Shown: positions 3,199 to 19,954 of the stretch, in pieces
Layout: each line of letters begins with the position of its first letter
How positions within the stretch are numbered: the stretch's first letter is position 1
Source of the DNA: Bacteroidota bacterium
GTDB lineage: Bacteria; Bacteroidota; Ignavibacteria; UBA10030; UBA6906
Reading direction: 5' to 3'
NCBI GenBank assembly: GCA_040756745.1
Contig: JBFLYO010000012.1
Location: 10,429-74,428, forward strand
DNA length: 64,000 bases
Position numbers and translations under genes: made by a program
Notes under the pieces: model-generated
Database searches by the model: none
Told to the model about the DNA's origin: nothing
The model's input: only the letters and a program-made list of their open reading frames with translations

Positions 3199-3237
3199 CT
3201 GCATCTGTGCGAGTGTTTCCCGAGGAGTGACGCAACG

Positions 3238-3750: not shown

Positions 3751-3778
3751 TAGTAATTGTTGCATATGTTAGTACCAC

Positions 3779-3810
3779 ACGGGCGGCTGAAGCCGCCCGT
3801 TGTGTTGTTT
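3779..3810 (+). terminator. Intrinsic terminator after nuoI
   Basis: A 9-bp GC-rich stem (ACGGGCGGC / GCCGCCCGT) with loop TGAA, followed by TGTGTTGTTT, about 30 nt after the nuoI stop. Confidence 0.6.
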
Positions 3811-3834
3811 GGAAATCATGTGGGAAATTGGTTT

Positions 3835-3858
3835 ATTTCAACTGTAAGTAGTTGAAAT
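3835..3858. promoter_or_regulatory. Perfect 9-6-9 inverted repeat (ATTTCAACT-GTAAGT-AGTTGAAAT), candidate operator upstream of the CorC/HlyC-family gene
   Basis: The arms are exact reverse complements. It sits 27 nt upstream of the ATG at 3885. A T-rich palindrome of this kind is typical of a dimeric transcription-factor site. Confidence 0.4.
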
Positions 3859-3884
3859 TTCCCCACTTTCGGCAGTTTCGGCCC

Positions 3885-5210: not shown

Positions 5211-5219
5211 CCGGACAGC

Positions 5220-6344
5220 GTGAGCACCCAGAAGAAGATCCTCATCGTCTTCGGAACGAGGCCGGAGGCCATCAAGCTGGCCCCCGTGATTCAGGAGCTG
5301 CGGCGGTATCCTTCACAATTCCGCGCTCGGGTCTGCGTCACGGCCCAGCACCGGGAAATGCTGGACCAGGTGCTGTCCCTCTTCCGCATTCCTGTTCACC
5401 ACGATATGAACATCATGCAGCGGGGACAGTCGCTTGAGGAGGTGACCTCACGCGTCCTGCTGGGCATGAAAGCGATACTGGAGGATGAACGGCCGGATGT
5501 CATGATGATTCAGGGGGACACCACCACTGTCATGGCTGCTTCCCTCGCTGCATTCTATGCCGGCATTCCGGTAGCTCATGTTGAAGCAGGGCTTCGTACC
5601 TGGAACAAACGAAGCCCGTTTCCCGAAGAAATCAACCGTGTCATTGCCACGCACCTCTCGGACCTGCACTTCGCGCCGACGCAACAGGCCCGCGACAATC
5701 TCCTCCGTGAAGGGATCGACCCTCGAAGGATTCACGTCACGGGAAATACCGTCATCGATGCGCTTATGCATGTGCGAAAAGGCCTGCGGGTGCGGCGAGG
5801 ATACTTTGAGCGGATGTTCCACGACGTCGATTTTCGACGGAAAATGATCCTGGTGACGGGCCATCGGCGTGAGAACTTCGGGGAAGGTTTTCTCAATATT
5901 TGTGAGGCGATTCGCGACGTTGCGATCCGCCACCCGGAGCTGGAGATTGTTTACCCCGTACACTTGAACCCCAACGTTCAGAAACCGGTCCGGTCACTTC
6001 TCAACGGATATCCGAACATCCATCTGCTTGAACCTCAGCCCTATGCACCGTTCGTCTTCCTCATGGATCGGAGCGCGGTCATCCTCACGGACTCCGGCGG
6101 TGTGCAGGAGGAGGCGCCATCGCTCGGAAAGCCGGTGCTGGTGATGCGCAACCATACGGAACGGCCGGAAGCGGTGAAGGCGGGCACTGTCCGGCTGGTG
6201 GGCACCTCACGACGGCAGATTATCGCGGAGACCGAACGATTGCTGACCGACCGGCGGGCGTACCTTGCGATGAGCCGGGCACACAATCCATACGGCGACG
6301 GTACGGCGTCGCGGAGGATAGTGAGGATCCTTAGGAGAGCATGA
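5220..6344 (+). CDS. wecB: UDP-N-acetylglucosamine 2-epimerase (non-hydrolysing)
   Basis: Epimerase_2 family hallmarks (KILIVFGTRPEAIKLAPV…, HVEAGLRTWN, VTGNTVIDAL, LTDSGGVQEEAPSLGKPVLVMR). GTG start. Confidence 0.9.
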   Translation: MSTQKKILIVFGTRPEAIKLAPVIQELRRYPSQFRARVCVTAQHREMLDQVLSLFRIPVHHDMNIMQRGQSLEEVTSRVLLGMKAILEDERPDVMMIQGDTTTVMAASLAAFYAGIPVAHVEAGLRTWNKRSPFPEEINRVIATHLSDLHFAPTQQARDNLLREGIDPRRIHVTGNTVIDALMHVRKGLRVRRGYFERMFHDVDFRRKMILVTGHRRENFGEGFLNICEAIRDVAIRHPELEIVYPVHLNPNVQKPVRSLLNGYPNIHLLEPQPYAPFVFLMDRSAVILTDSGGVQEEAPSLGKPVLVMRNHTERPEAVKAGTVRLVGTSRRQIIAETERLLTDRRAYLAMSRAHNPYGDGTASRRIVRILRRA

Positions 6345-6345
6345 T

Positions 6346-6373
6346 GAGATTGAGATCAAGATTGAGATTGAGG
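6346..6373 (+). repeat. Hexanucleotide microsatellite (GAGATT GAGATC AAGATT GAGATT GAGGGT), 5 units
   Basis: Period-6 tandem repeat containing a GATC site. It begins 2 nt after the wecB stop codon. Confidence 0.85.
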
Positions 6374-6410
6374 GTGCGAAGCCTGAGCTACCGACGCGAT
6401 CCTCCTCAGC

Positions 6411-6461
6411 CTTGACCTTAACCTCAATCCTTAACCTTAACCTCGATCTCGATCTCCATCT
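6411..6461 (-). repeat. Second, longer period-6 tract, inverted relative to 6346-6373 (minus strand reads GGAGATCGAGATCGAGGTTAAGGTTAAGGATTGAGGTTAAGGTCAAGG)
   Basis: About 8 degenerate GAGATY/AAGGTT hexamers with two GATC sites. Together with the first tract it forms an imperfect inverted repeat across a 37-nt spacer, ending about 20 nt before the GT1 start codon. Confidence 0.8.
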
Positions 6462-6483
6462 TACTCTCGCTCTTTCCCGGCTA

Positions 6484-7776
6484 ATGCAAATCTTCATCTT
6501 TTCTCCCATCCCCTACTCTTTCCTCCACCAGCGTCCGCAGAAACTCGCCGACCAGTATGTCGAGAAGGGGCACCAGGTCACGTTCATCGAGCCGTGTGGG
6601 CTGACGGAATACCTCTCTGGACGAAAGAAGGGACTCCCGTTGCTCGTCATTCGCTCCGTCTGGTACTTCTTTCTTGGTCTCGCCGCCATAGTCATCCCGC
6701 GTATGCTCAGAAAGCCGGCTCTACGTGGAGACGGGGATGAACAAGGGGAGGGGCCGAAGATCGCCTCCATGCCTATCATTGTGCCGAACAACCGTGTCAA
6801 TTCAGCCATGATGGAGCGGCTCAACGCGTCAATTTACCGGCAGGCGATCAGGGGACTGTTCCGGCACATTGACCCCAACGAGGAAACATTGGCGATTGTC
6901 GAGAATCCCCTCTGGGGACTAGTGCTTCAACGAGGCGATTTCACGAGGCTCGCCTATGACTGCATCGACGAGATCAGTCTCTTTGCGGGCCGTGGTTCGG
7001 TTGAGCGCATGGAGTGCTACGAACGCCGGCTGATCGAAATGTCAGACGCAGTCTGTGTGACCGCAGAAAAGCTTGAAGAAACCCTTAGGCCGAAGGTCCT
7101 GGGACGGCCGCTTGTACGTCTTCCGAACGGCGTCGACTATGACTACTTCCAGCGGAGGATCCAGGAATGCGGCCCGCCGGATGCCCTTGCCGGCGTGCGC
7201 CGCCCGATCGTAGGGTATGTCGGCGTGCTGCGCAACTGGATGGACTACGCACTCGTCGAATACCTGGCCAGAACTCTGACGCAGGTATCGTTCGTTCTGG
7301 TCGGACCGGTTGATTTCGAAAACCGACTGGAGTCCATAAGGAAGATCCCGAACGTGATTCTTATGGGAAGGAGAGAATATCGCGACGTGCCTGCATTTAT
7401 CAATGCGTTTGATGTCTGCGTCATTCCGTTTCTGCCTGGACCGGTTTCGAACACGACAAACCCCGTTAAGCTCTTCGAATACTTTGCGCTCGGCAGGCCT
7501 GTGGTGTCAACGCGTCTGCGCGAGTTGGAAAAGTTTGCTGACCAGGGGCTCCTCCGAATGGCAGACAATCGGGAGGAATTCGCATCGGCCGTCACCGATG
7601 CGCTCGCCGAGCGCACGCCCGGGGTAAAGGAGATGAGGAAAGAGGTGGCGCGGGCGCATTCGTGGAAGTCGATTGCTGATCAATTGTTTGCCGTTGCGAT
7701 GTCACGCGAAGACTCACCGCCAAGGCGGAGAGGCGCAGAGGGAAAATCGAATTCGCACATCACGTCCAAAGGTTGA
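6484..7776 (+). CDS. Glycosyltransferase family 1 (GT4-like)
   Basis: C-terminal GT-B nucleotide-sugar binding fold (…VGYVGVLRNWMDYALVEYLA…FDVCVIPF…NPVKLFEYFALGRPVVST…). Start moved to the ATG at 6484 (MQIFIFSPIPY…); the track's upstream extension only translates the hexamer repeats (LNLNLDLDL). Confidence 0.8.
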   Translation: MQIFIFSPIPYSFLHQRPQKLADQYVEKGHQVTFIEPCGLTEYLSGRKKGLPLLVIRSVWYFFLGLAAIVIPRMLRKPALRGDGDEQGEGPKIASMPIIVPNNRVNSAMMERLNASIYRQAIRGLFRHIDPNEETLAIVENPLWGLVLQRGDFTRLAYDCIDEISLFAGRGSVERMECYERRLIEMSDAVCVTAEKLEETLRPKVLGRPLVRLPNGVDYDYFQRRIQECGPPDALAGVRRPIVGYVGVLRNWMDYALVEYLARTLTQVSFVLVGPVDFENRLESIRKIPNVILMGRREYRDVPAFINAFDVCVIPFLPGPVSNTTNPVKLFEYFALGRPVVSTRLRELEKFADQGLLRMADNREEFASAVTDALAERTPGVKEMRKEVARAHSWKSIADQLFAVAMSREDSPPRRRGAEGKSNSHITSKG

Positions 7777-7879
7777 TCCCTTGCATTCTGTGTTCCAACG
7801 GCTTGCCGGGCAGCTTCGCTTTCGGGAGCGGGTCGGAGTCTCTGTGCACCGGTTACTCCAATCCCGGACCGTCGGGAAT

Positions 7880-9118
7880 ATGGCGTGGGTGGGTGCGGCT
7901 TCCGCGGCCTCAGCCTTGCTCGGTGCAGTCTCGTCTGGGATCTACGGACGGACGCTGGGCGTTGCGGATTTCGGAATCCTGACGCTCATCGTCTCGCTCA
8001 TGACGATGATGGTCTCGTTCTCGGACCTCGGGATCAGCGGGTCAATCGTACGATTTGCCTCGGAAGCAATCGGCCGGAATGACACCAACCGAGTACGGTC
8101 CGTTCTGAGCGTTGCTCTCAAGGGGAAGGTGATGTTGTCGGCGGTCGTCGTCCTTGGCGCGCTCCTCTTTCTGAATCCGATCGTGTCGGCCGTGTTCTCG
8201 AGAGCCGATGAGCAGATCACTTCGTATTTCCTGCTTTCCCTTGTTGCAGTTGCCGCAGGGATGGCCGCCTCGTTCCTCCCCCCTATCTATCAGTCGTATC
8301 AGCGTTTTCGGACGCAGGCAATTATCGCCACGGTGCCGCCTCTTCTGAAAGTGGGTGCGGTTGCGATCTTTGCCTTTGGCATCTCCTCGCTCACCATCGG
8401 CATTGGGATTTGGATTGAAGTGGGCACTGCGGTGGTGTTGTTCACCCTCGGTTGGATGTGGTTGCCGGTGAGAGGGTTGCAGTGGGGGGGAGGGGACGGC
8501 GGGCTCCGCCGGCAGATGCTGTCATTTAACAAGTGGCTCTCGGTGTATTATGTACTCAATCTTGTGGGGGGAAGAGTGGATTTGTTCCTCGTCGGAGGGA
8601 TTCTGGACGCACATGCACTGGGATTATATGGTTCGGCGTCGAAGATCGCCTCCATGGTCCTCATTGCCTCGAACGCCTATCTGACTGTGCTCCTTCCGGA
8701 CCTCTCTTCTGCGCTGAACCCTGATCTGCTCAGGAAGAAAGTGGGGCAGGCATTCACGGTGGGCGCGTTCTTTGTCGCCGGTATAGCTGTCCTGGCCCTG
8801 TTGGCGGATCTTGTCATCCTGGTGATCTTCGGCGGCGCATTTGCCGGGGCAAGCGCGGTCTTGCGCATCATGTGCATAGGGTTGACGTTCACTGTTCTGG
8901 CGACGCCGCTGAACGCAGCGCTGTTCGCTCGGGGGGAGTCGTTTGCGTTCCCCGTTATGTCGGCCGCGGCAATCGCCGCACTGCTCCTCGGGAATGCCTT
9001 TCTCATCCCGCGATTTGGCGTGGAAGGGGGAGCAGCCGCCTATTCGCTCAGCGGCGCCGTTGGCTTTTTGACCTCAACCGTGATATATTTCGGTATTTCT
9101 CGCAGGCGCACCGCTTGA
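7880..9118 (+). CDS. Wzx-like oligosaccharide flippase (polysaccharide biosynthesis protein, MOP superfamily)
   Basis: About 12 TM helices with a Wzx-like N-terminus (…NMAWVGAASAASALLGAVSSGIYGRTLGVADFGILTLI…). ATG at 7880 is used; a GTG at 7844 is a possible alternative start. Confidence 0.75.
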   Translation: MAWVGAASAASALLGAVSSGIYGRTLGVADFGILTLIVSLMTMMVSFSDLGISGSIVRFASEAIGRNDTNRVRSVLSVALKGKVMLSAVVVLGALLFLNPIVSAVFSRADEQITSYFLLSLVAVAAGMAASFLPPIYQSYQRFRTQAIIATVPPLLKVGAVAIFAFGISSLTIGIGIWIEVGTAVVLFTLGWMWLPVRGLQWGGGDGGLRRQMLSFNKWLSVYYVLNLVGGRVDLFLVGGILDAHALGLYGSASKIASMVLIASNAYLTVLLPDLSSALNPDLLRKKVGQAFTVGAFFVAGIAVLALLADLVILVIFGGAFAGASAVLRIMCIGLTFTVLATPLNAALFARGESFAFPVMSAAAIAALLLGNAFLIPRFGVEGGAAAYSLSGAVGFLTSTVIYFGISRRRTA

Positions 9119-9192
9119 GTGGTGACCTGCTGAGTGTGCCTGACCTCCAGGGGGACCATGCTCCGACCGCCCTTCGTTGTTCGGCGCTGCCA

Positions 9193-10086
9193 ATGACTGC
9201 CTGTGGAATCTGCGGCGGCGACGGCCTGGTGCCAATGTTCCAGGCGAGGGACGAGAACTTCCATACGACCGATGAGCTCTTCACCATTGAGCGGTGCCCT
9301 GTGTGCGGAGCGGCACAGACGATACCCCCTGCCGCTGTGCACCAAGTCGGGAGCTACTATCCGCAGTCGTACTACCCGACGGTTGTTCTGGATGCGTCAC
9401 GGTATGAACGGAATATCGGAAGATTTCAGAAGGAGAAGCTTGATTTTGTCCGTCGCTTCCGGTCGGGAGGGAAATTGCTCGACATCGGGTGCGGGGCAGG
9501 CTACTTCCTGCGGGAGGTGGTGCGCGCCGGTTTCGACGCAGAGGGGGTAGAGCTCAGCCGTGAAGCCGCCGAGTTCGGGAGGACGCAATGGGGTCTCCGA
9601 ATTGCGGAAGGGGATGCCCTCAGCGTTTCACTTCCTGAGGCATCGTACGACGTGATCACGATGTGGCAGGTACTTGAACATGTGCTGAATGTGAGGGAAA
9701 CGCTCAACAAGGTCCATGCGCTCCTCCGTCCCGGCGGTATCCTGGTTGTTGCTGTGCCCAATATCGGGAGCTGGCAGGCCAGGCTGTTCCGCGGTCGGTG
9801 GTATCATCTCGATGTCCCCAGGCACCAGTTTCATTTCGATCCGAGCACACTCCGCACGTTGCTTGGGGAACACGGGTTCTCCGTTGTCGGTGAGAGCCGA
9901 CGGTCCGCCGAACACAACTGGGCAGGCATCATGGGGAGCATGATCGAATTCTCCCCTCCTCGCATCACGCAGGCGGGGAAGGCGTTCCGTCGCTTTATCG
10001 CACGCCCGCTCGCAGGAACGGCGTCCTGGATCGAGGAGATGCTCGGCAGCGGCGGAACGTTCACGCTCAGCGCCGAAAGACGCTGA
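9193..10086 (+). CDS. Class I SAM-dependent methyltransferase with an N-terminal CxxC…CxxC zinc-ribbon
   Basis: CGICGG…CPVCG zinc-ribbon followed by a methyltransferase motif I (LLDIGCGAGYFL) and a post-I acidic residue. ATG at 9193 follows the flippase stop at 9118. Confidence 0.75.
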   Translation: MTACGICGGDGLVPMFQARDENFHTTDELFTIERCPVCGAAQTIPPAAVHQVGSYYPQSYYPTVVLDASRYERNIGRFQKEKLDFVRRFRSGGKLLDIGCGAGYFLREVVRAGFDAEGVELSREAAEFGRTQWGLRIAEGDALSVSLPEASYDVITMWQVLEHVLNVRETLNKVHALLRPGGILVVAVPNIGSWQARLFRGRWYHLDVPRHQFHFDPSTLRTLLGEHGFSVVGESRRSAEHNWAGIMGSMIEFSPPRITQAGKAFRRFIARPLAGTASWIEEMLGSGGTFTLSAERR

Positions 10087-10095
10087 TCGGAACTC

Positions 10096-11052
10096 ATGAA
10101 CGCCGCCCGACGTCCGGATGTATCGATCGTCTTCACGCACTGGAACGTCCGTGACCTCCTCCGGAACTGCCTCATTTCGTTGAAGGAAAAAACTGTCGGT
10201 CTCACCTACGAGATCATCATCGTTGACGATGGCTCCACCGATGGGAGCGTTGAGATGATCAAGAGGGAGTTCCCGGAGGTGAGGCTCGTCGAGAATGGCA
10301 CGAACATCGGCGTGGCAAAGGCGTACAACAGGGGGGCAGCCCTGGTCACCGGCCGGTACATGCAGATGCTCAATACGGACATGGTGCTGGTGAACAATGC
10401 CATCAAGATTTTGATGGAGTTTCTTGAAACGCACCCTGAAGCAGGCGCGTGCGCAGGGAAATTACGGAACCCGGATCTCTCAACGCAGATCTCATACGGA
10501 TCCTTCCCGAGTCTTCTTCAGGGATTCGCGGATGCGTTCGGCCTCCGACATCTGCTCCCGTTCGTGCGCTGGCCGCTCGCCGGGGTCTGCCCCGACGACG
10601 CACAAACGGAACCGCTGGAAGTCGAGTACCTCTCCGGCGCGGATATGCTGATCCGAAGCGAAGTGATCGAACGGATCGGGTTCTTTGATGAACGGTATAC
10701 GAGCTATTGCGAGGAAACCGACTTCTGCTACCGCATCAGGCATGAGTCGCCGTGGAAGCTCTATTATGTGCCTCAGGCCGAAATCATCCACTTCGGGGGT
10801 CAATCCTTCAGCAAGGTTCCGGAATACCGTCTTCGTCTCATGTATTCTGGCTACGACAAATTTTTCACGAAGCATCATGGCGAGGCGTACTCGTTCCTGA
10901 CACGCTTCCTGTATGCTCTGCGGTTTGTGCGGCGGTGGATCGTGGCGCGAGTCGCTTATGCCTTCAGACCCGACGAGTCACACAAGTGGGCCGTGACGGA
11001 GGCGTCGTGGCATATCCGGTATGCGCTGTTCCCGCAAGAAGGGAGGACGTAG
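10096..11052 (+). CDS. Glycosyltransferase family 2
   Basis: GT-A fold with VSIVFTHWNVRDLLRNCLISL, the DxD-type motif IIIVDDGSTDGS, and …SGADMLIRSEV…. Confidence 0.85.
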   Translation: MNAARRPDVSIVFTHWNVRDLLRNCLISLKEKTVGLTYEIIIVDDGSTDGSVEMIKREFPEVRLVENGTNIGVAKAYNRGAALVTGRYMQMLNTDMVLVNNAIKILMEFLETHPEAGACAGKLRNPDLSTQISYGSFPSLLQGFADAFGLRHLLPFVRWPLAGVCPDDAQTEPLEVEYLSGADMLIRSEVIERIGFFDERYTSYCEETDFCYRIRHESPWKLYYVPQAEIIHFGGQSFSKVPEYRLRLMYSGYDKFFTKHHGEAYSFLTRFLYALRFVRRWIVARVAYAFRPDESHKWAVTEASWHIRYALFPQEGRT

Positions 11053-11083
11053 GTTGAGATCGAGATTGAGATCGAGATCAATC
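11053..11083 (+). repeat. Hexanucleotide microsatellite GTTGAG ATCGAG ATTGAG ATCGAG ATCAATC, i.e. (GAGATY)4 with three GATC sites
   Basis: Same repeat unit as 6346-6373. It begins 1 nt after the GT2 stop codon (TAG 11050-11052). Confidence 0.85.
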
Positions 11084-11112
11084 TTCCTATTGGATAAATG
11101 TAAGAGGGCCCA

Positions 11113-11544
11113 ATGTCCGGATCTTTCATCAAGCGACACCCGCTCAGGTTTCATGAGGATGACCGTGGCGTCAGATATAACGACATCTTCCCCATCGGGC
11201 AGGGAGACGTCAATGCGACGGTCGTTTATCCAGGCGCCCTCTCCGCTTGGCACCGTCACCAGCTGCAGGACGACTACCAGATCTGCGTGAAAGGGGCGCT
11301 CAAGTTCGGCTTCTGCGACAAGCCCGCCGCTCAGGGAGGGACGGTGGAATGGGTGTATTCCAGCGAACGGAGTGCGAAGGAAGGGGCTCTGTTCATCCCA
11401 CGGGGGATCTGGCATGGCTATTACAATTTCACCGATGAGATCGCGATCGTCCTCTACTGGCTGACAAGCAAGTACAACCCGAAGGACGAGGAGAGGATGA
11501 CGATCGAGAACATGGGCTTTGATTGGATGCGGCGTGCAAAGTAA
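11113..11544 (+). CDS. FdtA/WxcM-like cupin, a probable dTDP-4-keto-6-deoxyhexose 3,4-ketoisomerase
   Basis: A 143-aa cupin with the WHRH His motif and a …IPRGIWHGYYNF… β-barrel. The size and motifs match the FdtA/QdtA family; an RmlC-like epimerase cannot be excluded. Confidence 0.6.
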   Translation: MSGSFIKRHPLRFHEDDRGVRYNDIFPIGQGDVNATVVYPGALSAWHRHQLQDDYQICVKGALKFGFCDKPAAQGGTVEWVYSSERSAKEGALFIPRGIWHGYYNFTDEIAIVLYWLTSKYNPKDEERMTIENMGFDWMRRAK

Positions 11545-13516
11545 GCTTCTCATCACCGGTGGCAAGGGGCAGCTCGCCGGAGAAATCCTCAGGATCGATC
11601 CGGCGGCGCTCGCACCCTCCAGAGAGGAGATGGATGTCGGTTCCTATGAGGCGGTGGATTCGTACTGCTGCCTCCGTGGAATCGGGGTTATCATCCACGC
11701 CGCCGCAGTCACAAACAAATTCAACGAGAATGTGGATGAGGAGTACGTCCGGACCAACATCATCGGAACCGCAAATCTTGCGCTTTGGTGCATCCGGCAC
11801 GACGCCCGGCTTGTCTACGTTTCCTCCGACTACGTCTATCCGGGTGAGGCGGGGAACTTCTCTGAAGAGGCCCCGCTCTTCCCCGTGAACCGCTATGCGC
11901 TCTCAAAGCTCGGGGGAGAGTGTTCCGTACGACTTGTCGCAAACAGCCTGGTGATCCGAACCTCGTTCTACCGGGAGCTCACGTTTTCCAGAGCATGTGT
12001 CGACCAATTCACCTCGCGGATGCCCATCCGCGATGCGGCAGAAGCGATCCATGCCCTTGCGCTCCGGGAGGATGTCCGCGGGGTCATCAACGTGGGCAGA
12101 CCCGCAAAGCGGAATCTGCATGAGATCGTGACGAAGGAATTCAATCGCTCCGCTGAGCCGGTCCGCCGGCGTGATCTTTCCGTCCCGTACCATATTCCGC
12201 ACGACTCCTCACTCAACGTCACTCGCTTCATGAACCTGATGACGCAACTGGCGGCATCGTCGAAGAGCCAAAGGATATGCCGCATCTGCGGCACGGCCAC
12301 TCTCCGTCGCTATCTTGATCTGGGCGCCACACCGTTGGCAAACTCCTACGTGAAGAAGGAAGAGCTCTCCGCACCGGAATACAAAGAAGAGCTTGCCCTG
12401 CAGGTCTGCACAACCTGCGGCTTGTCGCAGCTTACGAAGGTAGTGCACCCCGACTTGATGTTCAAGAACTACCTCTACGTCAGCTCCACGACTGAAACAT
12501 TTCGGAAACACTGCGAGGAAATGTCTGTCACAACTTCGCGCGTTGCGGGTGCACGGGAGGGTGACCTGGTCCTCGACATTGCGAGCAACGACGGATGCCT
12601 CCTTTCCCGGTATCAGTCGATCGGCATGCGTGTTGTGGGAGTCGATCCCGCTGAGAACCTCGCGAGGGAGGCGAACGCGGCTGGGATTCCGACGATCAAT
12701 GCCTACTGGTCATCGTCGATTGGCAACGACATCGCCTCGCGGTTCGGACGGCCGAGAATCATCACGGCCACGAATGTCTTCGCACATGTTGACGACATGC
12801 ACGAGTTTGTGAACGGCGTGCAGGCCTGTCTCGCCCGCCAGGGGATCTTCGTGATCGAGTGCCCCTACGTTCTCGATTTTGTTGAGAAGAATGAGTTCGA
12901 CACTGCCTACCATGAGCATCTCTCATACATCGGCATCACGCCGCTTGTCCGCCTGATGGCGATGCATGGAATGGAAGTGTTCGACGTGGAGTATTTTTCC
13001 GACCTTCACGGCGGGACCATACGGACATACGTCTGCGCAAAGGGGGACTATGCTCGGGGTCCACGCGTCCGGGAATTCCTTGAGAGGGAAAAGGTCTTCG
13101 GCATCACCGCGGAGGCTCCGTACCAGGCCTTTGGCGAACGGGTGCAGTTGAACAAGCGACAGTTGATCGAGTTGATACGGAAGAAACGAAACGATGGCAG
13201 CGTGATCTGGTCCTACGGCGCGAGCGCGAAGGGAAATACGCTTGTGAATTTCTTCGAGCTGACGGCTGCGGACGTCCCTGTGGCCATCGACGATAATCCG
13301 AAGAAGTGGGAGTATTACACGCCCGGTGCTCACATGCGAATCACGGGCATCGATGAACTCTCAACATCGAAGGTGGATTACCTGCTCCTCCTTGCCTGGA
13401 ATTTCCAGAAGGAAATCATCGCGCGGTGCGCTGCTGTGCACTACCGGGGGGCGTTCATCGTTCCCGTCCCCGTGCCGACGATCCTTGCCCAAAACACAGG
13501 AGAACGGAAATCATGA
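11519..13516 (+). CDS. Fusion protein: N-terminal RmlD-like NAD(P)H sugar 4-ketoreductase domain + C-terminal TylC3-like NDP-hexose C-methyltransferase
   Basis: Residues ~1-230 carry ITGGKGQLAG… and a YxxxK motif (NRYALSKLGGE), as in the dTDP-4-dehydrorhamnose reductase family. Residues ~240-665 carry a zinc-binding CRICG…CTTCG module, a SAM-binding fold (LDIASNDGCLLS) and a C-terminal C-methyltransferase domain. Single uninterrupted frame; the N-terminal start is uncertain because it overlaps the upstream gene by 26 nt. Confidence 0.7.
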   Translation: MIGCGVQSKLLITGGKGQLAGEILRIDPAALAPSREEMDVGSYEAVDSYCCLRGIGVIIHAAAVTNKFNENVDEEYVRTNIIGTANLALWCIRHDARLVYVSSDYVYPGEAGNFSEEAPLFPVNRYALSKLGGECSVRLVANSLVIRTSFYRELTFSRACVDQFTSRMPIRDAAEAIHALALREDVRGVINVGRPAKRNLHEIVTKEFNRSAEPVRRRDLSVPYHIPHDSSLNVTRFMNLMTQLAASSKSQRICRICGTATLRRYLDLGATPLANSYVKKEELSAPEYKEELALQVCTTCGLSQLTKVVHPDLMFKNYLYVSSTTETFRKHCEEMSVTTSRVAGAREGDLVLDIASNDGCLLSRYQSIGMRVVGVDPAENLAREANAAGIPTINAYWSSSIGNDIASRFGRPRIITATNVFAHVDDMHEFVNGVQACLARQGIFVIECPYVLDFVEKNEFDTAYHEHLSYIGITPLVRLMAMHGMEVFDVEYFSDLHGGTIRTYVCAKGDYARGPRVREFLEREKVFGITAEAPYQAFGERVQLNKRQLIELIRKKRNDGSVIWSYGASAKGNTLVNFFELTAADVPVAIDDNPKKWEYYTPGAHMRITGIDELSTSKVDYLLLLAWNFQKEIIARCAAVHYRGAFIVPVPVPTILAQNTGERKS

Positions 13517-14457
13517 AAGTCGTTGCGGTAACAGGCTGCCTTGGATTCATGGGATCTCATTTTACCCGCGCATGCCTGGAGAAGGGTTGGCGGGTCTGGG
13601 GGATCGACAAGATGACCTATGCCGCCCGCGCGGAGCATCTTGAGTCATTCCGGAAGTACAAGACATTCAAATTCCTCGAAGCTGACATCGCGACCATGGA
13701 CCACCTGTACGAGGTGGACTACGTATTCAACTTTGCGGCGGAGACCCACGTCGACAACAGCATCGTGGACAGCCGGAGGTTTCTTGACACGAATATCCGG
13801 GGGGTGGAAAACCTCCTGGAGCTGATCCGGGCCAAACGCAACTATGAGATGCCCGTGATGTTCCAGCTCAGCACTGACGAAGTCTATGGCGACCTCGTGC
13901 ATGGGAACCACAAAGAGACCGACCCGCTCCGACCGAGTAACCCGTATTCTGCCAGCAAGGCATCCGCTGACATGCTGATCCTGGCCTGGTACAGGACGCA
14001 TGGGGTTCCGTTCAACATTATCCGCCCTACGAACAATTACGGGATCGACCAGTACCCCGAGAAACTCATCCCCAAGGCGGTGAAGTACCTCTCGCTCGGC
14101 AAGAAGATTCCGCTTCACGGCGACGGCTCGTTCGTGCGGAACTGGCTGCATGCCGACGACACGTCGTCGGCGATCTTCCACATCGTCGAGCATGGCGAGC
14201 GGAACGCGGTCTACAACGTCTCAGGCAATTACGAGGCGCCTAACCGTGAGGTCGTCGCCAAAGTCATCCGGCTGTATTTTGGGAAAGAGGTGCCCATTGA
14301 CGAGCACGTCGAGTTCAACTATGTCAGGATGGGGGAGGATGTGCGGTATTCGCTCGACGATAGCCGGATCCGGTCGCTCGGATGGAAGAATGGCAAGAAT
14401 TTCGATGACGAACTCCGGCTTATGGTGGACTACTACAAGAACAAGTTCACCTGGTGA
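13513..14457 (+). CDS. rmlB: dTDP-glucose 4,6-dehydratase
   Basis: VTGCLGFMGSHF Rossmann motif, YSASKASAD (YxxxK) and an extended SDR fold. ATGA overlap with the preceding gene. Confidence 0.88.
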   Translation: MKVVAVTGCLGFMGSHFTRACLEKGWRVWGIDKMTYAARAEHLESFRKYKTFKFLEADIATMDHLYEVDYVFNFAAETHVDNSIVDSRRFLDTNIRGVENLLELIRAKRNYEMPVMFQLSTDEVYGDLVHGNHKETDPLRPSNPYSASKASADMLILAWYRTHGVPFNIIRPTNNYGIDQYPEKLIPKAVKYLSLGKKIPLHGDGSFVRNWLHADDTSSAIFHIVEHGERNAVYNVSGNYEAPNREVVAKVIRLYFGKEVPIDEHVEFNYVRMGEDVRYSLDDSRIRSLGWKNGKNFDDELRLMVDYYKNKFTW

Positions 14458-14466
14458 TATTCTGCG

Positions 14467-15504
14467 GTGGACCACGCTTCCCCCCTCTGTTCGGTTGTAG
14501 TTCTGAATTACAACGGCCGGCATCTTCTCGATTCCTGTCTGGAATCGGTTTTCCTCCAATCGGGACTCTCCTTCGAAGTCATACTGGTGGATAACGGATC
14601 GAGTGACGGAAGCGTGCGTCACGTGGCGGAGCGGTTTCCGACGGTCCGCATCGTCGCCTCCGATGTCAACCTCGGATACGCGGGAGGAAATAACCTGGGG
14701 GTGGAACACGCCCGAGGCCGTCTCGTGGTTCTCCTGAACAACGACACGGTCGTCGAGCCCGGATGGCTTGTGTCGCTGGTGGACGTGGGAAACCGGGAAG
14801 ACGTCGGGGTTGCCTCATCGCTCGTGCTCACCGAAGGGATCCCCGCGCGGTATTACGAGAAGAACGGCTCGCTTAATTTCGTCTGTCATAACATCATGAG
14901 GATATTTGAACGGAAAGAGGACATCTTTTACGGGGGCGGGGCCTCGCTCCTGTTCAAAAAAGATCTCTTCGCGCTGCCCTTTGATGGTGAGTATTTTGCG
15001 TACTGCGAGGACATCTACCTTGGGTTTCGGGCACGGTTTATTGGATTTCGTGTCGTCCATGCCGACGATTCGGTGGTGCACCACAAGGGAAGTGCAACTG
15101 CGGGTAAACAGAAGAGCGCCTTCACTTCGTATCTCCAGGAACGGAACAGGCTGTTGACCATGTTAATCTTCTTTTCGTGGTGGACGCTGGTCAGAATAGC
15201 CCCATACTTCGTGTTCAACCTGGTTGCCAAGCTTATGCTCGGTGCTCTCACACGCCGACATTCGCTTCCCGGGCTCCTTCGTGCATACTGGTGGCTCGTC
15301 GCTCACCCGGTCGAGATCGCTCAGAAGCGCAGGCGTATGCGGGCGGAACGGCGTGTCAACGAGCGTGAGGTCATTTCGTGGATGACAGGTAAGCTGACAA
15401 ACGGTGAAACCCTTCCGGGAAGGATATTGAATGCGGTTGCGCTCGCATGGTGTCGGTTGGTGAGGCTCAAGACCGTGGAGTCTCTCCCGGCAGGGCTGCG
15501 ATGA
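14467..15504 (+). CDS. Glycosyltransferase family 2
   Basis: VVVLNYNGRHLLDSCLESV…ILVDNGSSDGS… and …GGGASLLFKKDL…. Confidence 0.85.
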   Translation: MDHASPLCSVVVLNYNGRHLLDSCLESVFLQSGLSFEVILVDNGSSDGSVRHVAERFPTVRIVASDVNLGYAGGNNLGVEHARGRLVVLLNNDTVVEPGWLVSLVDVGNREDVGVASSLVLTEGIPARYYEKNGSLNFVCHNIMRIFERKEDIFYGGGASLLFKKDLFALPFDGEYFAYCEDIYLGFRARFIGFRVVHADDSVVHHKGSATAGKQKSAFTSYLQERNRLLTMLIFFSWWTLVRIAPYFVFNLVAKLMLGALTRRHSLPGLLRAYWWLVAHPVEIAQKRRRMRAERRVNEREVISWMTGKLTNGETLPGRILNAVALAWCRLVRLKTVESLPAGLR

Positions 15505-16319
15505 TCTCCGTCATCCTTGTCCAATTCAATAACGGCGGACTGACGGTTGAAGCGGTCCGCACATTGCGTGCATTTCATCGTGAAGCGTATGAGATTATTG
15601 TGGTCGACAATGGCTCCGACGATGGATCATCTGAAATCCTCCGAAAGGAACTGAGCGATATCCGGATCATTGTCAATGAACGCAATGAAGGATTTGGCGC
15701 GGCGAACAATCGGGCAGCCGCGGAAGCCAGCGGAGACATACTCCTGTTCCTAAACAACGACACTGTTTCGACATCCGATTACCTGAGCAGGGCGGCGCAG
15801 ATATTCCGTTCCGATGCTTCTCTCGGGGTCCTTGGGCCGAGATTGCTCTTCCCCGATAACACATTCCAGCTTTCCGCGGGGGCATTGCCCACGTTTTGGA
15901 ACGAGGCCCGGGAGAAGGCGCTCTATGCCCTGGAGCGCAGGAACGTCTCCGTCGTCCGCCGTGCAGCGGAGAAGTACTTTTCTCAGCGAAGGGATGTGGG
16001 TTGGGTGACGGGGGCAGCGCTGTTGATCCGCAGGGATCTGTTTCAGCAGATCGGGGGTTATGATCCCTTGATGTTCATGTACTTTGAGGACAAAGACCTG
16101 TGTGCCCGCGTCTCCCGGCTGGGAAAACGGGTAGTGTACGATCCTTCCATGAGCGTTGTTCATCTGAAAGGAGGAAGCTCGTCGGGTCCGGCACGATTGA
16201 CTGCTCGCACCGCCTACCGGCGCAGCCAGATCCGGTACTACGAGATGCATCGCCCGGGGTACGAGCAATGGCTGTTGCGGTTATATCTGAGACTCACCGG
16301 TCGACTCCCCCATGCCTGA
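15501..16319 (+). CDS. Glycosyltransferase family 2
   Basis: ISVILVQFNNGGLTVEAVRTL…IIVVDNGSDDGS… and …GAALLIRRDLF…. ATGA overlap with the upstream GT2. Confidence 0.85.
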   Translation: MISVILVQFNNGGLTVEAVRTLRAFHREAYEIIVVDNGSDDGSSEILRKELSDIRIIVNERNEGFGAANNRAAAEASGDILLFLNNDTVSTSDYLSRAAQIFRSDASLGVLGPRLLFPDNTFQLSAGALPTFWNEAREKALYALERRNVSVVRRAAEKYFSQRRDVGWVTGAALLIRRDLFQQIGGYDPLMFMYFEDKDLCARVSRLGKRVVYDPSMSVVHLKGGSSSGPARLTARTAYRRSQIRYYEMHRPGYEQWLLRLYLRLTGRLPHA

Positions 16320-17418
16320 TTCGCCCCTGCGCGTCCTGCTGATGATCGATGAGGCCTCCGTGGGAGGAGGACAGCGCCACGTTCTGTGGCTCGCCGAGGG
16401 GCTGAACAAGAAGCGATTTGTTGCCGCGGTGGCATGCGAGCCAAGAGGGTTTCTCGTCGATGAGCTGGCGAAGCGGAGAATTCCGCACTTCCCGATCCGC
16501 ATGACCAATATCCCGAGTCCGCGGGCACTGCTGGCGTGCAGGGATACGTTCCGGAAGTTTCGGCCGGATATCGTGCACACGCATGGCGGAACAGCCGGAG
16601 TCACAGGGCGAATCGCAGCGAAATTCTGGACGAAGGCTATCTGTGTTCATACGTACCACGGCCATCATTACCTGCACATCCCGAACCTGCTCAAACGCCG
16701 CATATTTGCATTGAGCGAGGCAGCGCTCCTCCGTTACACAGACCGTCTGATCTGCGTTGCCAGGCCTGATGTCGACACGGGGGCAAAGGCAGGCATCGTC
16801 GATCCGTCAATGACGATCGTAATATACAACGGCATAGACCTTACAGCGTTCAGGGGCCGGCGTTCAAGGAGAAGGAAGGGGGAGAAGGTTATCGGCACGG
16901 TGGGGCGGTTGCACCCGCAAAAGGGGCACCGCGTCCTGATTGCGGCAGCCGCGGAACTGCTCCGATCAGTGCCGAAGGTGAAATTTCTCATTATCGGTGA
17001 AGGGGAATTGCGCGGCGAGCTTGAAGCGTATGCGACGGAACTGGGGATCGCCGATCACATCATCTTCATGGGAGCCCGGACGGATGTTGTTCCGCTTCTC
17101 GGCACCATGGACATCTTTGTTCTCCCATCTCTGTGGGAAGGGCATCCGCTTGTATTGATGGAAGCCATGGCGGCAGGACTTCCTATTGTCGCGTCGGCAG
17201 TGGACGGAGTTACGGAGATCGTGCGGGACGGGAAAGACGCGTTGTTGGTGCCGCCGGGAGATCCCCTCCGGCTGGCCGGGGCAATTCAGCGGCTTCTGAC
17301 GAGCGCCTCGCTTCGGCAGCGGCTCGGGAGTAAGGGGAGAGAAGTGGCCAGAGAGCGATTCTCAGTGAAGAGGATGGTGAAAGAAACCGAGGACCTCTAC
17401 ATGAGCTTGCGAAGATGA
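16312..17418 (+). CDS. Glycosyltransferase family 1
   Basis: GT-B C-terminal domain (…FVLPSLWEGHPLVLMEAMAAGLPIVASAVDGVTEIV…). Start overlaps the previous stop. Confidence 0.85.
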   Translation: MPDSPLRVLLMIDEASVGGGQRHVLWLAEGLNKKRFVAAVACEPRGFLVDELAKRRIPHFPIRMTNIPSPRALLACRDTFRKFRPDIVHTHGGTAGVTGRIAAKFWTKAICVHTYHGHHYLHIPNLLKRRIFALSEAALLRYTDRLICVARPDVDTGAKAGIVDPSMTIVIYNGIDLTAFRGRRSRRRKGEKVIGTVGRLHPQKGHRVLIAAAAELLRSVPKVKFLIIGEGELRGELEAYATELGIADHIIFMGARTDVVPLLGTMDIFVLPSLWEGHPLVLMEAMAAGLPIVASAVDGVTEIVRDGKDALLVPPGDPLRLAGAIQRLLTSASLRQRLGSKGREVARERFSVKRMVKETEDLYMSLRR

Positions 17419-18005
17419 AACTGGGAATCTTCGGCGGCACGTTTGATCCCGTTCATCATGGACACCTCATTGTTGCTGAGTATGTGCGGGAAAAGGTGGG
17501 GCTCGATCGAGTGTTGTTGGTGCCAAGTTTCATCTCTCCCCACAAACAGGAGGAGGCGGTGAGCGAGGTGGAGGACCGTCTCGCCATGCTTCGCGAGGCC
17601 GTCGGGCCGAAGTCACGGCTTGAAATCTCGGAGATTGAACTCCGCAGAGGAGGGGTGTCGTATACCGTCGATACACTCAGGGAGCTGTCAGCGTCACATC
17701 CCGCTGATCGGTTGTTCCTTCTCCTGGGATCTGACAATGTCCGAGAATTTCACACTTGGAAGGACCCGGCGGAGATAGGCCGACTGGCAAGACTCATCGT
17801 ACTGACCCGTCCCGGTCACGAATGGATTCCGTCCGAGTCGTCCCTGCTCGTCGGGGCGATATTCTGTGATGTGCCGGGGATTGATATTTCATCGACGGAG
17901 ATTCGGAGGAGGGTTTCGCTGGGACTTCCGATTGCCTTGATGGTCCCGCCGGGCGTTGAGCGATACATTGTGGAGCACCGTTTGTATACAAGGCCGGCGC
18001 AGTAA
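17415..18005 (+). CDS. nadD: Nicotinate-nucleotide adenylyltransferase
   Basis: GIFGGTFDPVHHGH (HxGH) together with …SxTxIR… (ISSTEIRRR). ATGA overlap with the GT1 stop. Confidence 0.88.
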   Translation: MKLGIFGGTFDPVHHGHLIVAEYVREKVGLDRVLLVPSFISPHKQEEAVSEVEDRLAMLREAVGPKSRLEISEIELRRGGVSYTVDTLRELSASHPADRLFLLLGSDNVREFHTWKDPAEIGRLARLIVLTRPGHEWIPSESSLLVGAIFCDVPGIDISSTEIRRRVSLGLPIALMVPPGVERYIVEHRLYTRPAQ

Positions 18006-18025
18006 AGCAATGTTGATGTCTCATT

Positions 18026-18244
18026 ATGCTGAAAGAGATAGACATGGATATTGACGAAATCAAGTCTGCAATTGCATCGCTCCCGACCGACCAGCGGAGG
18101 AAGGTTGCGATGTATATTTTGGAACTCGAGAAGAAGCATCTCGAAGAGACAGTGGGCCCGCAGATCAAGGAAGACATCCAGGGGGTGTCGAAGGTCCTTC
18201 AGGAAGCATTGGAGAAACTGAAGCGGTTTGCGGGGAAATCGTAA
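18026..18244 (+). CDS. Hypothetical small acidic protein (72 aa)
   Basis: ORF with a Lys/Glu-rich predicted helical sequence and no recognisable motif. Confidence 0.4.
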   Translation: MLKEIDMDIDEIKSAIASLPTDQRRKVAMYILELEKKHLEETVGPQIKEDIQGVSKVLQEALEKLKRFAGKS

Positions 18245-18336
18245 CGGCGGCAGTTGACTTCGGTCCGGTCTTGTTGCAGAACCCGGACTCATCTTGCTTT
18301 CCCAACCGTTGCTGCTTATCTTTACGGTTGTCAAAA

Positions 18337-18365
18337 GTCAATTGTCCATCGTCAATTGTCAATTG
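18337..18365 (+). repeat. Three tandem copies of GTCAATTG(TC) immediately upstream of tRNA-Arg
   Basis: GTCAATTGTCcatcGTCAATTGTCAATTG. Each unit contains the CAATTG palindrome, and the array ends 3 nt before the mature tRNA 5' end. Confidence 0.7.
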
Positions 18366-18368
18366 CAC

Positions 18369-18443
18369 GCCCTCGTAGCTCAGTATGGATAGAGCGACGG
18401 TTTCCTAAACCGCAGGTCGGCAGTTCGACTCTGCCCGAGGGCA
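18369..18443 (+). tRNA. tRNA-Arg (anticodon CCT)
   Basis: Cloverleaf by manual folding: acceptor GCCCTCG/CGAGGGC, D-stem GCTC/GAGC, anticodon loop TTCCTAA (U33, CCT, A37), T-loop TTCGACT, discriminator A. CCA is not encoded. Confidence 0.85.
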
Positions 18444-18447
18444 CACA

Positions 18448-18545
18448 GAATTTCGAAATGCGGATTGCGGATTGCGGAATTGGTTTTGCATGACGCATAA
18501 GTGAGATTCACCTAAGGTAGGCTGGAAGGCCCGAGGCGAGGGGCC
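18448..18545 (+). repeat. Copy A of a duplicated ~95-bp element beginning with a heptamer array (GAATTTCG AAATGCG GATTGCG GATTGCG GAATTGG)
   Basis: About 75% identity to copy B, with shared blocks TGCGGATTGCGGAAT, GGTGAGATT and GGCCCGA. Confidence 0.7.
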
Positions 18546-18598
18546 GCCCGACCTGTCCACCGTAGCTCGCTCCTCAGAGCGAAGGGGGAGGGCACTCA

Positions 18599-18690
18599 GG
18601 AATTCGGAATGCGAATTGCGGATTGCGGAATAGGCTTTGAATGATGCATTGGTGAGATTGTCCTGAGCGAGGCCCGAAGGGCCGAGTGCA
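18599..18690 (+). repeat. Copy B of the duplicated element (GAATTCG GAATGCG AATTGCG GATTGCG GAATAGG …)
   Basis: Direct repeat of 18448-18545 with the same heptamer array and downstream conserved blocks. Confidence 0.7.
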
Positions 18691-18775
18691 CAAATGGCGC
18701 CCGCAAAATCTGGCGGATGCAAGCCGTGACGAACACGCTCCCAGGTCGTTCGAAGCAAGCCACGAAAGTTTTCGC

Positions 18776-18804
18776 TTGACTTTTGTGACCGTTTGCTGTA
18801 CTCT
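18776..18804 (+). promoter_or_regulatory. Sigma70-like promoter (TTGACT, 17 nt spacer, TACTCT)
   Basis: Sequence match only. It would give a long (~290 nt) 5' leader for the gene at 19100, or a separate small RNA. Confidence 0.4.
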
Positions 18805-18846
18805 GTCCCACCTTTTTTCCCGTTCTTTGAATATCGCTTCGCGACA

Positions 18847-18878
18847 GATACTCCCTCACTCGTAAAGTGGGGAGTATC
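18847..18878 (+). promoter_or_regulatory. Stem-loop GATACTCCC-(14 nt)-GGGAGTATC within the putative leader
   Basis: Perfect 9-bp inverted repeat downstream of the candidate promoter. Confidence 0.4.
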
Positions 18879-19099
18879 AGTAGCAATTGGAGGTCAGTGA
18901 AACCTGTATCCCTCTGCTCTGACCGCTCGCCCCTTGCTCAGCGCCCCCCTCGCGCCTTTATTGCCTTTCGATCCTGCTTATACACCCATAAGAATTTCTC
19001 CCTGCGCCCGGATACTCACTCTCTGGGGTATAATCGCAGCTGCTTTGTAAACCGATTTTCCACTCAATTCACCATCACACTCATCGTTAGGAGCATCGC

Positions 19100-19831
19100 A
19101 TGAAACGTTCCCTTGGTATGATTGTCCTCGCTGGCTTTCTTTCCTGCACGCTGCTCCAGGCGCAGGAAAAATCCACGCTCAGCACGTACCGGGTCTTCCC
19201 AAAGCCGGGGAAGGATTCGGCATTGAGGAAGGCGATCGCAGACCATGTGGCAAGATTCCATACGGGAAGCTGGAAGTGGCGCGCCTTCAGAGTGCTCTCA
19301 GGGGCTGACGAAGGGTCCTACCAGTTAAACGAAGGGCTGAACTCCTGGACTGAGCTTGAAGGTCGGAAGGATATCAGTGACGAGCACACGCGCGACTATG
19401 AGACGAATGTCCTCCCCCTGACTGAGAAGGCGACCCCAAATGCGTATTTTCTCTTCCGGAGGGAGTTCAGTAGCGATTCAGTAGGGAATACATTCAAGAA
19501 AGCGCTTCTCCGACATTTCTATCCAAGGCCGGGCCGCGGCGTCAGGCTCATGGAAACGCTCGGGACCTGGAAAAAAGTGTGGGAGAAACTGGGCATGAAG
19601 GTGACGGTCTGGTCAAGCTTTTTCTCGGGAGAACCGCAGTGGGTTGTCGCTGCCAGGCTGCCGAAAGGGTTCGTCGACCTCGAGCAGCCCATGGGGAAAG
19701 CTATGGCTGACACCTACGAAGCAGTGGCGGGTCCTGGGGCGTACGGCCGATTCCTGGACGACCTCAACATGAACGTCGCCAGGATCGACGAAGAAATCAT
19801 TGAGTGGGTGCCGGAGCTGAGTTCCAAATAA
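19100..19831 (+). CDS. Hypothetical secreted protein (signal peptide)
   Basis: N-terminal signal peptide (MKRSLGMIVLAGFLSCTLLQAQE) and an RBS AGGAG 8 nt upstream. No recognisable domain. Confidence 0.6.
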   Translation: MKRSLGMIVLAGFLSCTLLQAQEKSTLSTYRVFPKPGKDSALRKAIADHVARFHTGSWKWRAFRVLSGADEGSYQLNEGLNSWTELEGRKDISDEHTRDYETNVLPLTEKATPNAYFLFRREFSSDSVGNTFKKALLRHFYPRPGRGVRLMETLGTWKKVWEKLGMKVTVWSSFFSGEPQWVVAARLPKGFVDLEQPMGKAMADTYEAVAGPGAYGRFLDDLNMNVARIDEEIIEWVPELSSK

Positions 19832-19861
19832 CAGTTGATGTAATCGGCAAGTTTCTTAGCG

Positions 19862-19893
19862 AATCCGCATCCCGGTCCGCCGGGATGCGGATT
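19862..19893. terminator. Bidirectional hairpin terminator between convergent genes
   Basis: 14-bp perfect stem AATCCGCATCCCGG / CCGGGATGCGGATT with loop TCCG, lying between the 19100..19831 (+) gene and mlaD (-). Confidence 0.55.
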
Positions 19894-19954
19894 GTGCTTC
19901 TGGACCTGCCATGCACTTACGAAGCGTGCAGGTCCTCTCCGATCACGATCTGCT

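Follow-up and report, generated by a model that had tools for sequence, protein, structure and literature searches.

A predicted bifunctional ketoreductase/C-methyltransferase fusion in a glycan locus of a Bacteroidota bacterium

The stretch of 64,000 nucleotides analyzed here (the window: positions 10,429 to 74,428 of contig JBFLYO010000012.1, GenBank assembly GCA_040756745.1, from a Bacteroidota bacterium of the class Ignavibacteria) carries a glycan locus with all genes on one strand, and within it a gene that joins a domain of the short-chain dehydrogenase/reductase (SDR) class and a sugar C-methyltransferase dependent on S-adenosylmethionine (SAM) in a single product (Table 1). The open frame runs without interruption from 11519 to 13516 on the plus strand and counts 665 codons from the first in-frame TTG (11519). 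The true start is probably the GTG at 11534; the 660-residue product from this codon has the same sequence as a database protein (P0001; GenBank MEW6510658.1) that is named 'sugar nucleotide-binding protein [Bacteroidota bacterium]'. Pfam residue numbers given below refer to the 665-residue product, and residue names such as S98 or C249 to the 660-residue product. The fused gene lies between a cupin gene, with which its start overlaps by 11 nucleotides, and a dehydratase gene whose start codon (ATG, 13513) overlaps the stop codon of the fusion as ATGA. Because the three genes overlap in this way, they are probably co-translated, and possibly their products form a complex as well.

An earlier note on this DNA had proposed a single-polypeptide fusion at 11519-13516, and the domain search agrees with it: RmlD_sub_bind, Methyltransf_13, Methyltransf_23 and Methyltransf_14 all score above their Pfam cut-offs and lie where that proposal had placed them. 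An AlphaFold2 model of the whole fused protein has a predicted local distance difference test (pLDDT) value of 89.2 and a predicted template-modeling score of 0.85. A search over 5.8 billion proteins, with hits from NCBI, JGI, ENA and Logan assemblies, returned about 90 clusters carrying the same fused domain set; 83 of these are 640-700 residues long and 53-84% identical to the window protein. Mean identity over 82 homologues is 60% in the N-terminal domain and 68% in the C-terminal part, and JGI labels several of the fused homologues 'dTDP-4-dehydrorhamnose reductase/SAM-dependent methyltransferase'. Residues called invariant below are so in an alignment of 83 sequences.

Table 1. Features of the fused gene, its two partners and the surrounding glycan locus (nucleotide positions of the window unless marked aa)
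Feature	Position	Strand	Remarks
Fused gene	11534-13516	+	660 aa; stop TGA 13514-13516; probable start GTG 11534
RmlD_sub_bind (Pfam)	aa 9-150	+	E 6.5e-25; 88.2 bits (cut-off 27); covers profile positions 2-150 of 287 only
Methyltransf_13, Zn ribbon (Pfam)	aa 254-315	+	E 3.4e-19
Methyltransf_23 (Pfam)	aa 339-487	+	E 2.6e-11
Methyltransf_14 (Pfam)	aa 496-651	+	E 2.9e-41
Compact RmlD-like SDR domain	11534-12244	+	aa 1-237, N-terminal
S98	11825-11827	+	catalytic residue
Y121	11894-11896	+	catalytic residue
K125	11906-11908	+	catalytic residue
Interdomain linker	12245-12277	+	about aa 238-248
Zn-ribbon domain	12278-12463	+	Cys249, Cys252, Cys292, Cys295
SAM-binding Rossmann domain	12533-12979	+	Methyltransf_23; holds H418 and the Y459-H-E461-H462 motif
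C-methyltransferase C-terminal domain	13004-13471	+	Methyltransf_14
Cupin, probable nucleoside diphosphate (NDP)-4-ketohexose epimerase	11113-11544	+	143 aa; Pfam dTDP_sugar_isom weak; fold match CapF cupin
dTDP-glucose 4,6-dehydratase homologue (RmlB-like)	13513-14457	+	314 aa; STDEVYG and YSASK motifs
Glycan locus	5220-17418	+	all genes on one strand
UDP-GlcNAc 2-epimerase	5220-6344	+	
Glycosyltransferase, family GT1	6412-7776	+	
Wzx-type flippase	7673-9118	+	
Class I SAM methyltransferase (Methyltransf_23)	8872-10086	+	listed open reading frame
GT2 glycosyltransferase	10096-11052	+	directly upstream of the cupin gene
GT2	14467-15504	+	
GT2	15447-16319	+	
GT4	16312-17418	+	

Judged from its motifs and predicted fold, the C-terminal part is a complete NDP-hexose C-methyltransferase of the TylC3/TcaB9/MtmC type. 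The zinc-ribbon and SAM-binding domains recognized in the earlier note are both present, and so is the C-terminal domain of these enzymes. The best solved relatives in a HMMER search against the PDB are MtmC (E 1.1e-88), TcaB9 (E 4.5e-57) and KijD1 (E 8e-51), and Foldseek matches all three with target-normalized template-modeling (TM) scores of 0.94-0.95. The closest, MtmC from the mithramycin pathway of Streptomyces argillaceus (PDB 4RV9/4RVD), is 37% identical and has the three-part fold in common with the C-terminal 415 residues of the fused protein (TM 0.94). MtmC, TcaB9 (3NDI) and KijD1 (5T64) are alike in having zinc cysteines and catalytic Tyr, His and Glu residues identical to those of the window protein. 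The four cysteines (C249, C252, C292 and C295) are invariant in the family, as are Y313, H418, Y459, E461 and H462, which the HMMER alignment pairs with the identical Y76, H181, Y222, E224 and H225 of TcaB9; the TcaB9 numbering allows for a two-residue offset from the deposited chain, and these residues are the ones in the titles of the mutant PDB entries. The methyltransferase domain looks competent on this basis, and C3 is favored as the predicted methylation site, since all of the solved relatives methylate at C3.

The N-terminal domain belongs to the RmlD family of SDR proteins. Its matches among PDB sequences are RmlD proteins (2ggs, 9gpi and 3sc6), and the best fold matches of this domain are RmlD enzymes (GacA 4wpg, 8g22, 3sc6 and 2ggs; target-normalized TM 0.69-0.74), which rank after the methyltransferases in a Foldseek search made with the whole-protein model. 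Like RmlD (GacA 4WPG, 1KBZ and 2GGS), the domain has the S/T-Y-K catalytic residues and STDYV-type, RTSW-type and C-terminal 'DSSLxT' motifs. The GxxGxxG-like motif and the YxxxK that had been claimed for it are there, as TGGKGQLA and Y-A-L-S-K. The glycine-rich loop T8-G9-G10-x-G12-x-x-A15 is invariant, apart from two N-terminally shorter sequences that do not include residues 8-15, and so are Y121, K125 and position 98, which is either S or T. Also invariant are an RTSF motif and some 20 additional residues of the domain's C-terminal half, among them Q158, S161, R162, N186 and Y219. A degenerate, non-catalytic N-terminal domain is ruled out, since the catalytic residues are invariant along with some 45 further positions. 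The domain looks competent, and is predicted to be so from this conservation.

A wider context for the N-terminal domain comes from a full HMMER search through 1.8 billion cluster representatives. It is a distinct compact family of about 235 residues and a recurrent fusion module. The family includes many stand-alone proteins of 230-250 residues that match the domain end to end at 30-42% identity. It is fused to a C-methyltransferase in P0132 and P0143, which have the same Pfam architecture as the window protein, and to RmlC in P0147 and P0149. Other partners are a DegT-type aminotransferase (P0247), a GT2 (P0211), a class I methyltransferase (P0258), a Gfo/Idh/MocA oxidoreductase (P0237) and a second SDR (P0177). 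The best indirect argument for regarding the compact SDR as a predicted 4-ketoreductase of 4-keto-6-deoxyhexoses comes from the RmlC fusions, a combination to be expected of such an enzyme; together with the gene context, these fusions provide indirect backing for a putative NAD(P)H-dependent reduction at C4 by the N-terminal domain.

The genes on either side of the fusion fit enzymes of the same kind of pathway. The downstream gene is a homologue of rmlB, as the earlier note had it: its ten best PDB matches are all dTDP-glucose 4,6-dehydratases (2hun, E 1e-68), it has the motifs of these enzymes (Table 1), and its best family is TIGR01181, at 306.5 bits against a cut-off of 365.1. The family scores of the upstream cupin are weak, being 28.5 bits against a cut-off of 27 for Pfam dTDP_sugar_isom and 22.8 against 155.75 for TIGR01221 (RmlC). 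Its PDB sequence matches are ChmJ (4hn0, E 6e-4) and Cap5F (E 5e-3), and His47 and Tyr121 align to the catalytic pair of ChmJ and RmlC, with the RmlC lysine replaced by Asp. The best Foldseek match of its predicted structure (pLDDT 84) is the cupin domain of CapF, a C3-epimerase, with NovW, ChmJ and RmlC lower, in a fold ranking that does not discriminate 3- from 5-epimerases. The earlier suggestion that this neighbor is an FdtA-like 3,4-ketoisomerase has to be given up. The FdtA family (PF05523) gives no Pfam match to the cupin at E <= 0.001 and is absent from the precomputed domains of all 38 cupin homologues; no FdtA or QdtA chain occurs among its PDB sequence matches up to E = 10, and neither is found in its top 50 Foldseek matches. 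Since the cupin resembles the CapF cupin and RmlC-type epimerases, a pathway with an epimerase rather than a 3,4-ketoisomerase is most likely.

The cupin is 74-85% identical across all five of the fused loci examined that have one, which exceeds the conservation of the adjacent fusion protein. Its family is narrow, consisting of 38 clusters that are all at least 63% identical. Both canonical metal-cupin motifs are kept (H47, H49, D53/D54 and H101), with the spacing G41-x5-H47-x-H49-x3-D53/D54-x6-G61 and G91-x4-P96-x-G98-x2-H101-x3-N105. RmlC-type epimerases, by contrast, are not known to need a metal.

Taken together, we give a probability of roughly 60% to the reading that the fused protein is a genuine two-domain bifunctional nucleotide-sugar enzyme acting in the following pathway. 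The RmlB-like enzyme would convert dTDP-glucose to dTDP-4-keto-6-deoxyglucose. The C-terminal domain of the fusion would then form an enolate by way of the 4-keto group and transfer a methyl group from SAM to an adjacent carbon, likely C3. The cupin would epimerize a center beside the keto group, which would be C5 if it acts after methylation, and C3 or C5 if it acts before. The N-terminal SDR domain would reduce the 4-keto group with NAD(P)H, and the neighboring GT2 enzyme would use the product, a dTDP-6-deoxy-C-methyl-hexose (3-C-methyl favored), for a surface polysaccharide exported by Wzx. The Methyltransf_23 protein, which is conserved along with the module, may contribute an O-methyl group. 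The domain architecture, the integrity of the catalytic motifs, the conservation, the synteny and the repeated occurrence of the fusion are observed directly, while we infer the substrates, the nucleotide (dTDP), the methylation site, the order of the steps and any channeling. With a dehydratase, a Wzx-type flippase and glycosyltransferases alongside, a dTDP-C-methyl-6-deoxyhexose as a surface glycan component, which had been put forward before, is the most economical reading of the locus. The accompanying statement that the fusion implies channeling went too far, as channeling would be one possible consequence of the architecture, and a simple intramolecular form of it is not implied should the cupin step fall between methylation and reduction.

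Several observations weigh against the pathway as drawn. The N-terminal domain (about 235 residues) is some 55 residues shorter than RmlD (about 290), and its RmlD profile match covers the first half only. Against TIGR01214, the RmlD equivalog family, it scores 79.8 bits with a cut-off of 224.05, again over the first part of the profile (positions 1-151 of 285 only). Since the domain is shorter than RmlD and far below the RmlD cut-off, its substrate and regiochemistry are not fixed by homology. The earlier assignment to the dTDP-4-dehydrorhamnose reductase type therefore stands as regards the family and its intact motifs, but not as regards RmlD equivalence. One fused locus (L013) has no cupin. 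Two closely related loci without the fusion (L001 and L006) have a stand-alone C-methyltransferase with no reductase nearby, so the reductase is either locally dispensable or supplied from elsewhere. In these stand-alone loci the 4-keto group may be reduced by an enzyme whose gene lies in another part of the genome or, as a more remote option by analogy with MtmC, by the methyltransferase itself. A six-frame motif scan of the 64-kb window gave no RmlA-type G-x-G-T-R-L loop, and at the level of sequence the present data do not separate C3 from C5 methylation.

This last point leads to the least improbable of the alternatives, still an unlikely one, in which the architecture is the same and C5 is methylated. 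The route would resemble that to noviose, with a cupin 3-epimerase (as NovW), C5 methylation (as NovU) and 4-keto reduction (as NovS), and would end in a 5-C-methyl (gem-dimethyl) 6-deoxyhexose. The 4,6-dehydratase, cupin epimerase, TylC3-family C-methyltransferase and 4-ketoreductase at the locus match the set NovT, NovW, NovU and NovS exactly, and the fold matches of the cupin include the 3-epimerases CapF cupin, NovW and ChmJ. On the other hand, that ranking does not separate 3- from 5-epimerases at all, and the solved relatives of the methyltransferase are all C3 enzymes, with MtmC by far the closest; the comparison was made against MtmC, TcaB9 and KijD1.

Next in rank, and improbable too, is the view that the N-terminal SDR is not the 4-ketoreductase of the pathway. 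It could act at another position or on another intermediate, or it could be an NAD(P)-binding structural or regulatory partner, as MAT2B is for MAT2A, with the 4-keto group reduced by the methyltransferase domain or by an enzyme elsewhere. Its truncation and low score relative to RmlD would fit this view, as would the loci that manage without a local reductase and the appearance of MAT2B, which is RmlD-like, among the fold matches. In addition, MtmC, the closest solved relative, has been described as a bifunctional enzyme that acts as a 4-ketoreductase with NADPH and as a C3-methyltransferase with SAM, on one and the same substrate (PMC10269268). Against this view, the S/T-Y-K residues and the nucleotide-binding loop are invariant, together with the many C-terminal-half residues noted above, and the compact family stands alone or is fused to RmlC, an aminotransferase and other sugar-pathway enzymes, which is typical of a catalytic module.

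MtmC also provides the model for another and decidedly improbable alternative, a dual output. The reductase and methyltransferase domains would compete for one 4-keto intermediate and yield both an unbranched 6-deoxyhexose (rhamnose or 6-deoxytalose type) and the C-methylated form of it, in proportions that depend on how much SAM and NAD(P)H is available. Cofactor-dependent switching is documented for MtmC, which makes the precursors of D-olivose and D-mycarose (PMC10269268), and there are several GT2 genes in the locus; the case for dual output is nevertheless purely one of analogy. MtmC is like the window fusion in placing 4-ketoreduction and C3 methylation on one polypeptide, as predicted for the fusion, and unlike it in doing so within a single domain by a swap of cofactor, whereas the window protein has a separate SDR domain.

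Finally, an assembly or frameshift artefact that merged two genes has a negligible probability and is ruled out in practice, for although some phyla do have the two genes as separate adjacent open reading frames, the frame and the linker length are the same in 83 clusters from different samples and assemblers, remote fused forms exist as well, the DNA around the junction (12210-12260, where the earlier note had asked for a check) contains no homopolymer run or other oddity, and the structural model is confident across the junction (linker pLDDT 76-85). In the alignment of 83 full-length homologues the linker varies in sequence and has no insertion or deletion.

In a scan limited to a single genome for each GTDB species, fused forms turned up in metagenome-assembled genomes (MAGs) labeled Ignavibacteriota, Bacteroidota/Chitinophagales and Omnitrophota. 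A second clade of fused forms is more remote (31-39% identity over the methyltransferase domain); its members in loci L039, L040 and L041 (labeled Myxococcota, Pedobacter and Woeseia; 37-38% identity) are each one open reading frame. Unfused pairs, in which an RmlD-like gene in another frame lies immediately upstream of the C-methyltransferase gene, are found in L031, L046, L047, L049 and L051, in MAGs of Verrucomicrobia, Acidobacteria, Burkholderiales and Elusimicrobiota (the last being L031). In a crude neighbor-joining tree of methyltransferase domains the fused forms fall into two separate clades, and stand-alone methyltransferases nest within the clade of the window protein, so the fusion has been gained or lost more than once. 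We infer that it derives from the widespread pair of an RmlD-like reductase directly upstream of a C-methyltransferase. Glycan-type loci, recognized by a neighboring flippase or neighboring glycosyltransferases, also contain homologous C-methyltransferases in MAGs from several phyla. The earlier statement that such a C-methyl-sugar module is rare outside antibiotic pathways was too strong, as the fused architecture alone is found in at least two clades across several phyla.

The Elusimicrobiota locus (L031, 6001-8209) shows an arrangement of its own. Its RmlD-like frame, about 30% identical to the window N-terminal domain, overlaps the start of the C-methyltransferase frame, and the tblastn match of the latter reaches back to query residue 203, in the tail of the SDR domain. 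Possible explanations are a fusion that was split or frameshifted not long ago and an alignment that extends too far.

The locus around the fusion is conserved beyond the three overlapping genes. The region from about 5220 to 16319, that is, from the epimerase gene to the second GT2 gene after the trio, is syntenic with two loci of Ignavibacteriae fen MAGs (L008 and L010), and the trio of cupin, fusion and dehydratase is kept in five of the six fused loci compared, Omnitrophota included. The GT2 upstream of the cupin is 70-72% identical in L008 and L010, and 58% identical in L013. A Methyltransf_23 protein is encoded close to the majority of the related modules that were compared; it may O-methylate the sugar or the glycan. 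In the window its listed frame overlaps the flippase gene by about 250 nucleotides and homology sets in only at about residues 105-111, so its true start probably lies near 9200. In the two stand-alone loci (L001, 3608-8213, and L006, 5513-10244), the C-methyltransferase is 66-68% identical in that domain and the orthologous dehydratase 75% identical; alongside them are a GT2 gene, a Methyltransf_23 homologue (31-35% identity) and a cupin unlike that of the window (33-34% identity). Scans for promoters and terminators across 3000-20000 gave results at chance level.

The glycan locus ends at a cytidylyltransferase-like gene (17415-18005). This gene was considered as the missing sugar nucleotidyltransferase and rejected, as it encodes NadD, the nicotinate-nucleotide adenylyltransferase (193.9 bits, above the cut-off). 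Housekeeping genes surround the locus (nuoG/H, a CNNM transporter, nadD, an Mla-like ABC system, ProRS, DnaE, PEPCK and AspRS). The Mla-like lipid-transport operon (MlaD, ABC ATPase and MlaE; 19955-22461, minus strand) lies just downstream and fits a diderm envelope. Some frames of the window, spanning 243-453 residues, have no family match: 19100-19831 matches neither Pfam nor NCBIfam, 19892-20767 and 22941-24302 (minus strand) have no match in Pfam, the only library searched for them, and 42309-43193 has none in NCBIfam, likewise the only one searched. An MlaD-family gene on the other strand (19955-20866) overlaps the frame at 19892-20767, which may be spurious.

Both activities and both folds of the fused protein are well known, and fusions of consecutive nucleotide-sugar enzymes are known as well. 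In the noviose and mycarose pathways the 4,6-dehydratase, C-methyltransferase, cupin epimerase and 4-ketoreductase are separate proteins, and the same reportedly holds for the four activities of the pathway proposed in silico for virenose of the Coxiella lipopolysaccharide. The pathways to mycarose (TylC3/TylK/TylC2), noviose (NovT/W/U/S) and virenose have the same four activities as the window locus. MtmC, TcaB9 and KijD1 act on 2,6-dideoxy or 3-amino-2,3,6-trideoxy sugars in antibiotic pathways, whereas the window fusion lies in a surface-glycan locus, and no 2,3-dehydratase or aminotransferase was found among the open reading frames of this locus that were scanned. A precedent for the joining of steps is CapF of the Staphylococcus aureus capsule, which has an N-terminal SDR 4-reductase and a C-terminal cupin C3-epimerase (PMC3699295). 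CapF (PDB 3ST7) and RmlC-RmlD-type fusions are like the window fusion in that consecutive steps on an NDP-4-ketohexose are joined. Unlike in CapF, the partner of the reductase here is a C-methyltransferase, and the cupin stays a separate, translationally coupled gene. A literature search found no description of a reductase/C-methyltransferase fusion, with many subscription journals outside its coverage. Sequence databases already contain the fused architecture, where it goes by generic names; it is widespread and readily interpretable, and it is not rare.

A wider reading, which we consider tentative and on balance doubtful, goes beyond this. The fused enzyme would couple methylation and 4-ketoreduction with a defined interdomain geometry and, together with a metal-dependent, CapF-like mini-cupin, would make an undescribed C-methyl-branched 6-deoxyhexose that is a common surface-glycan component in environmental Ignavibacteriota, Bacteroidota and Omnitrophota. 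The SDR of about 235 residues would be a new 'minimal RmlD' family, plugged repeatedly into C-methyltransferases, RmlC, aminotransferases, GT2 enzymes and Gfo/Idh/MocA oxidoreductases.

For the deoxysugar enzymologist the fusion is a neat target and no surprise. As a predicted compact and naturally coupled catalyst of methylation and reduction it may be of use in glyco-engineering, and it offers a natural test case for whether fusion keeps a 4-keto intermediate from being reduced prematurely. Recognition of the compact RmlD-like module helps the annotation of proteins that are at present labeled in general terms only, for example as 'sugar nucleotide-binding protein'. So far, branched C-methyl deoxysugars have been described chiefly in actinomycete antibiotics and in a small number of lipopolysaccharides. 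The locus and its many relatives suggest that C-methyl 6-deoxyhexoses may also occur in the surface glycans of uncultured bacteria of several phyla from soil, fen and groundwater. Current understanding is not overturned by these observations; rather, known enzymology reappears here in an architecture and an ecological setting that are both new.

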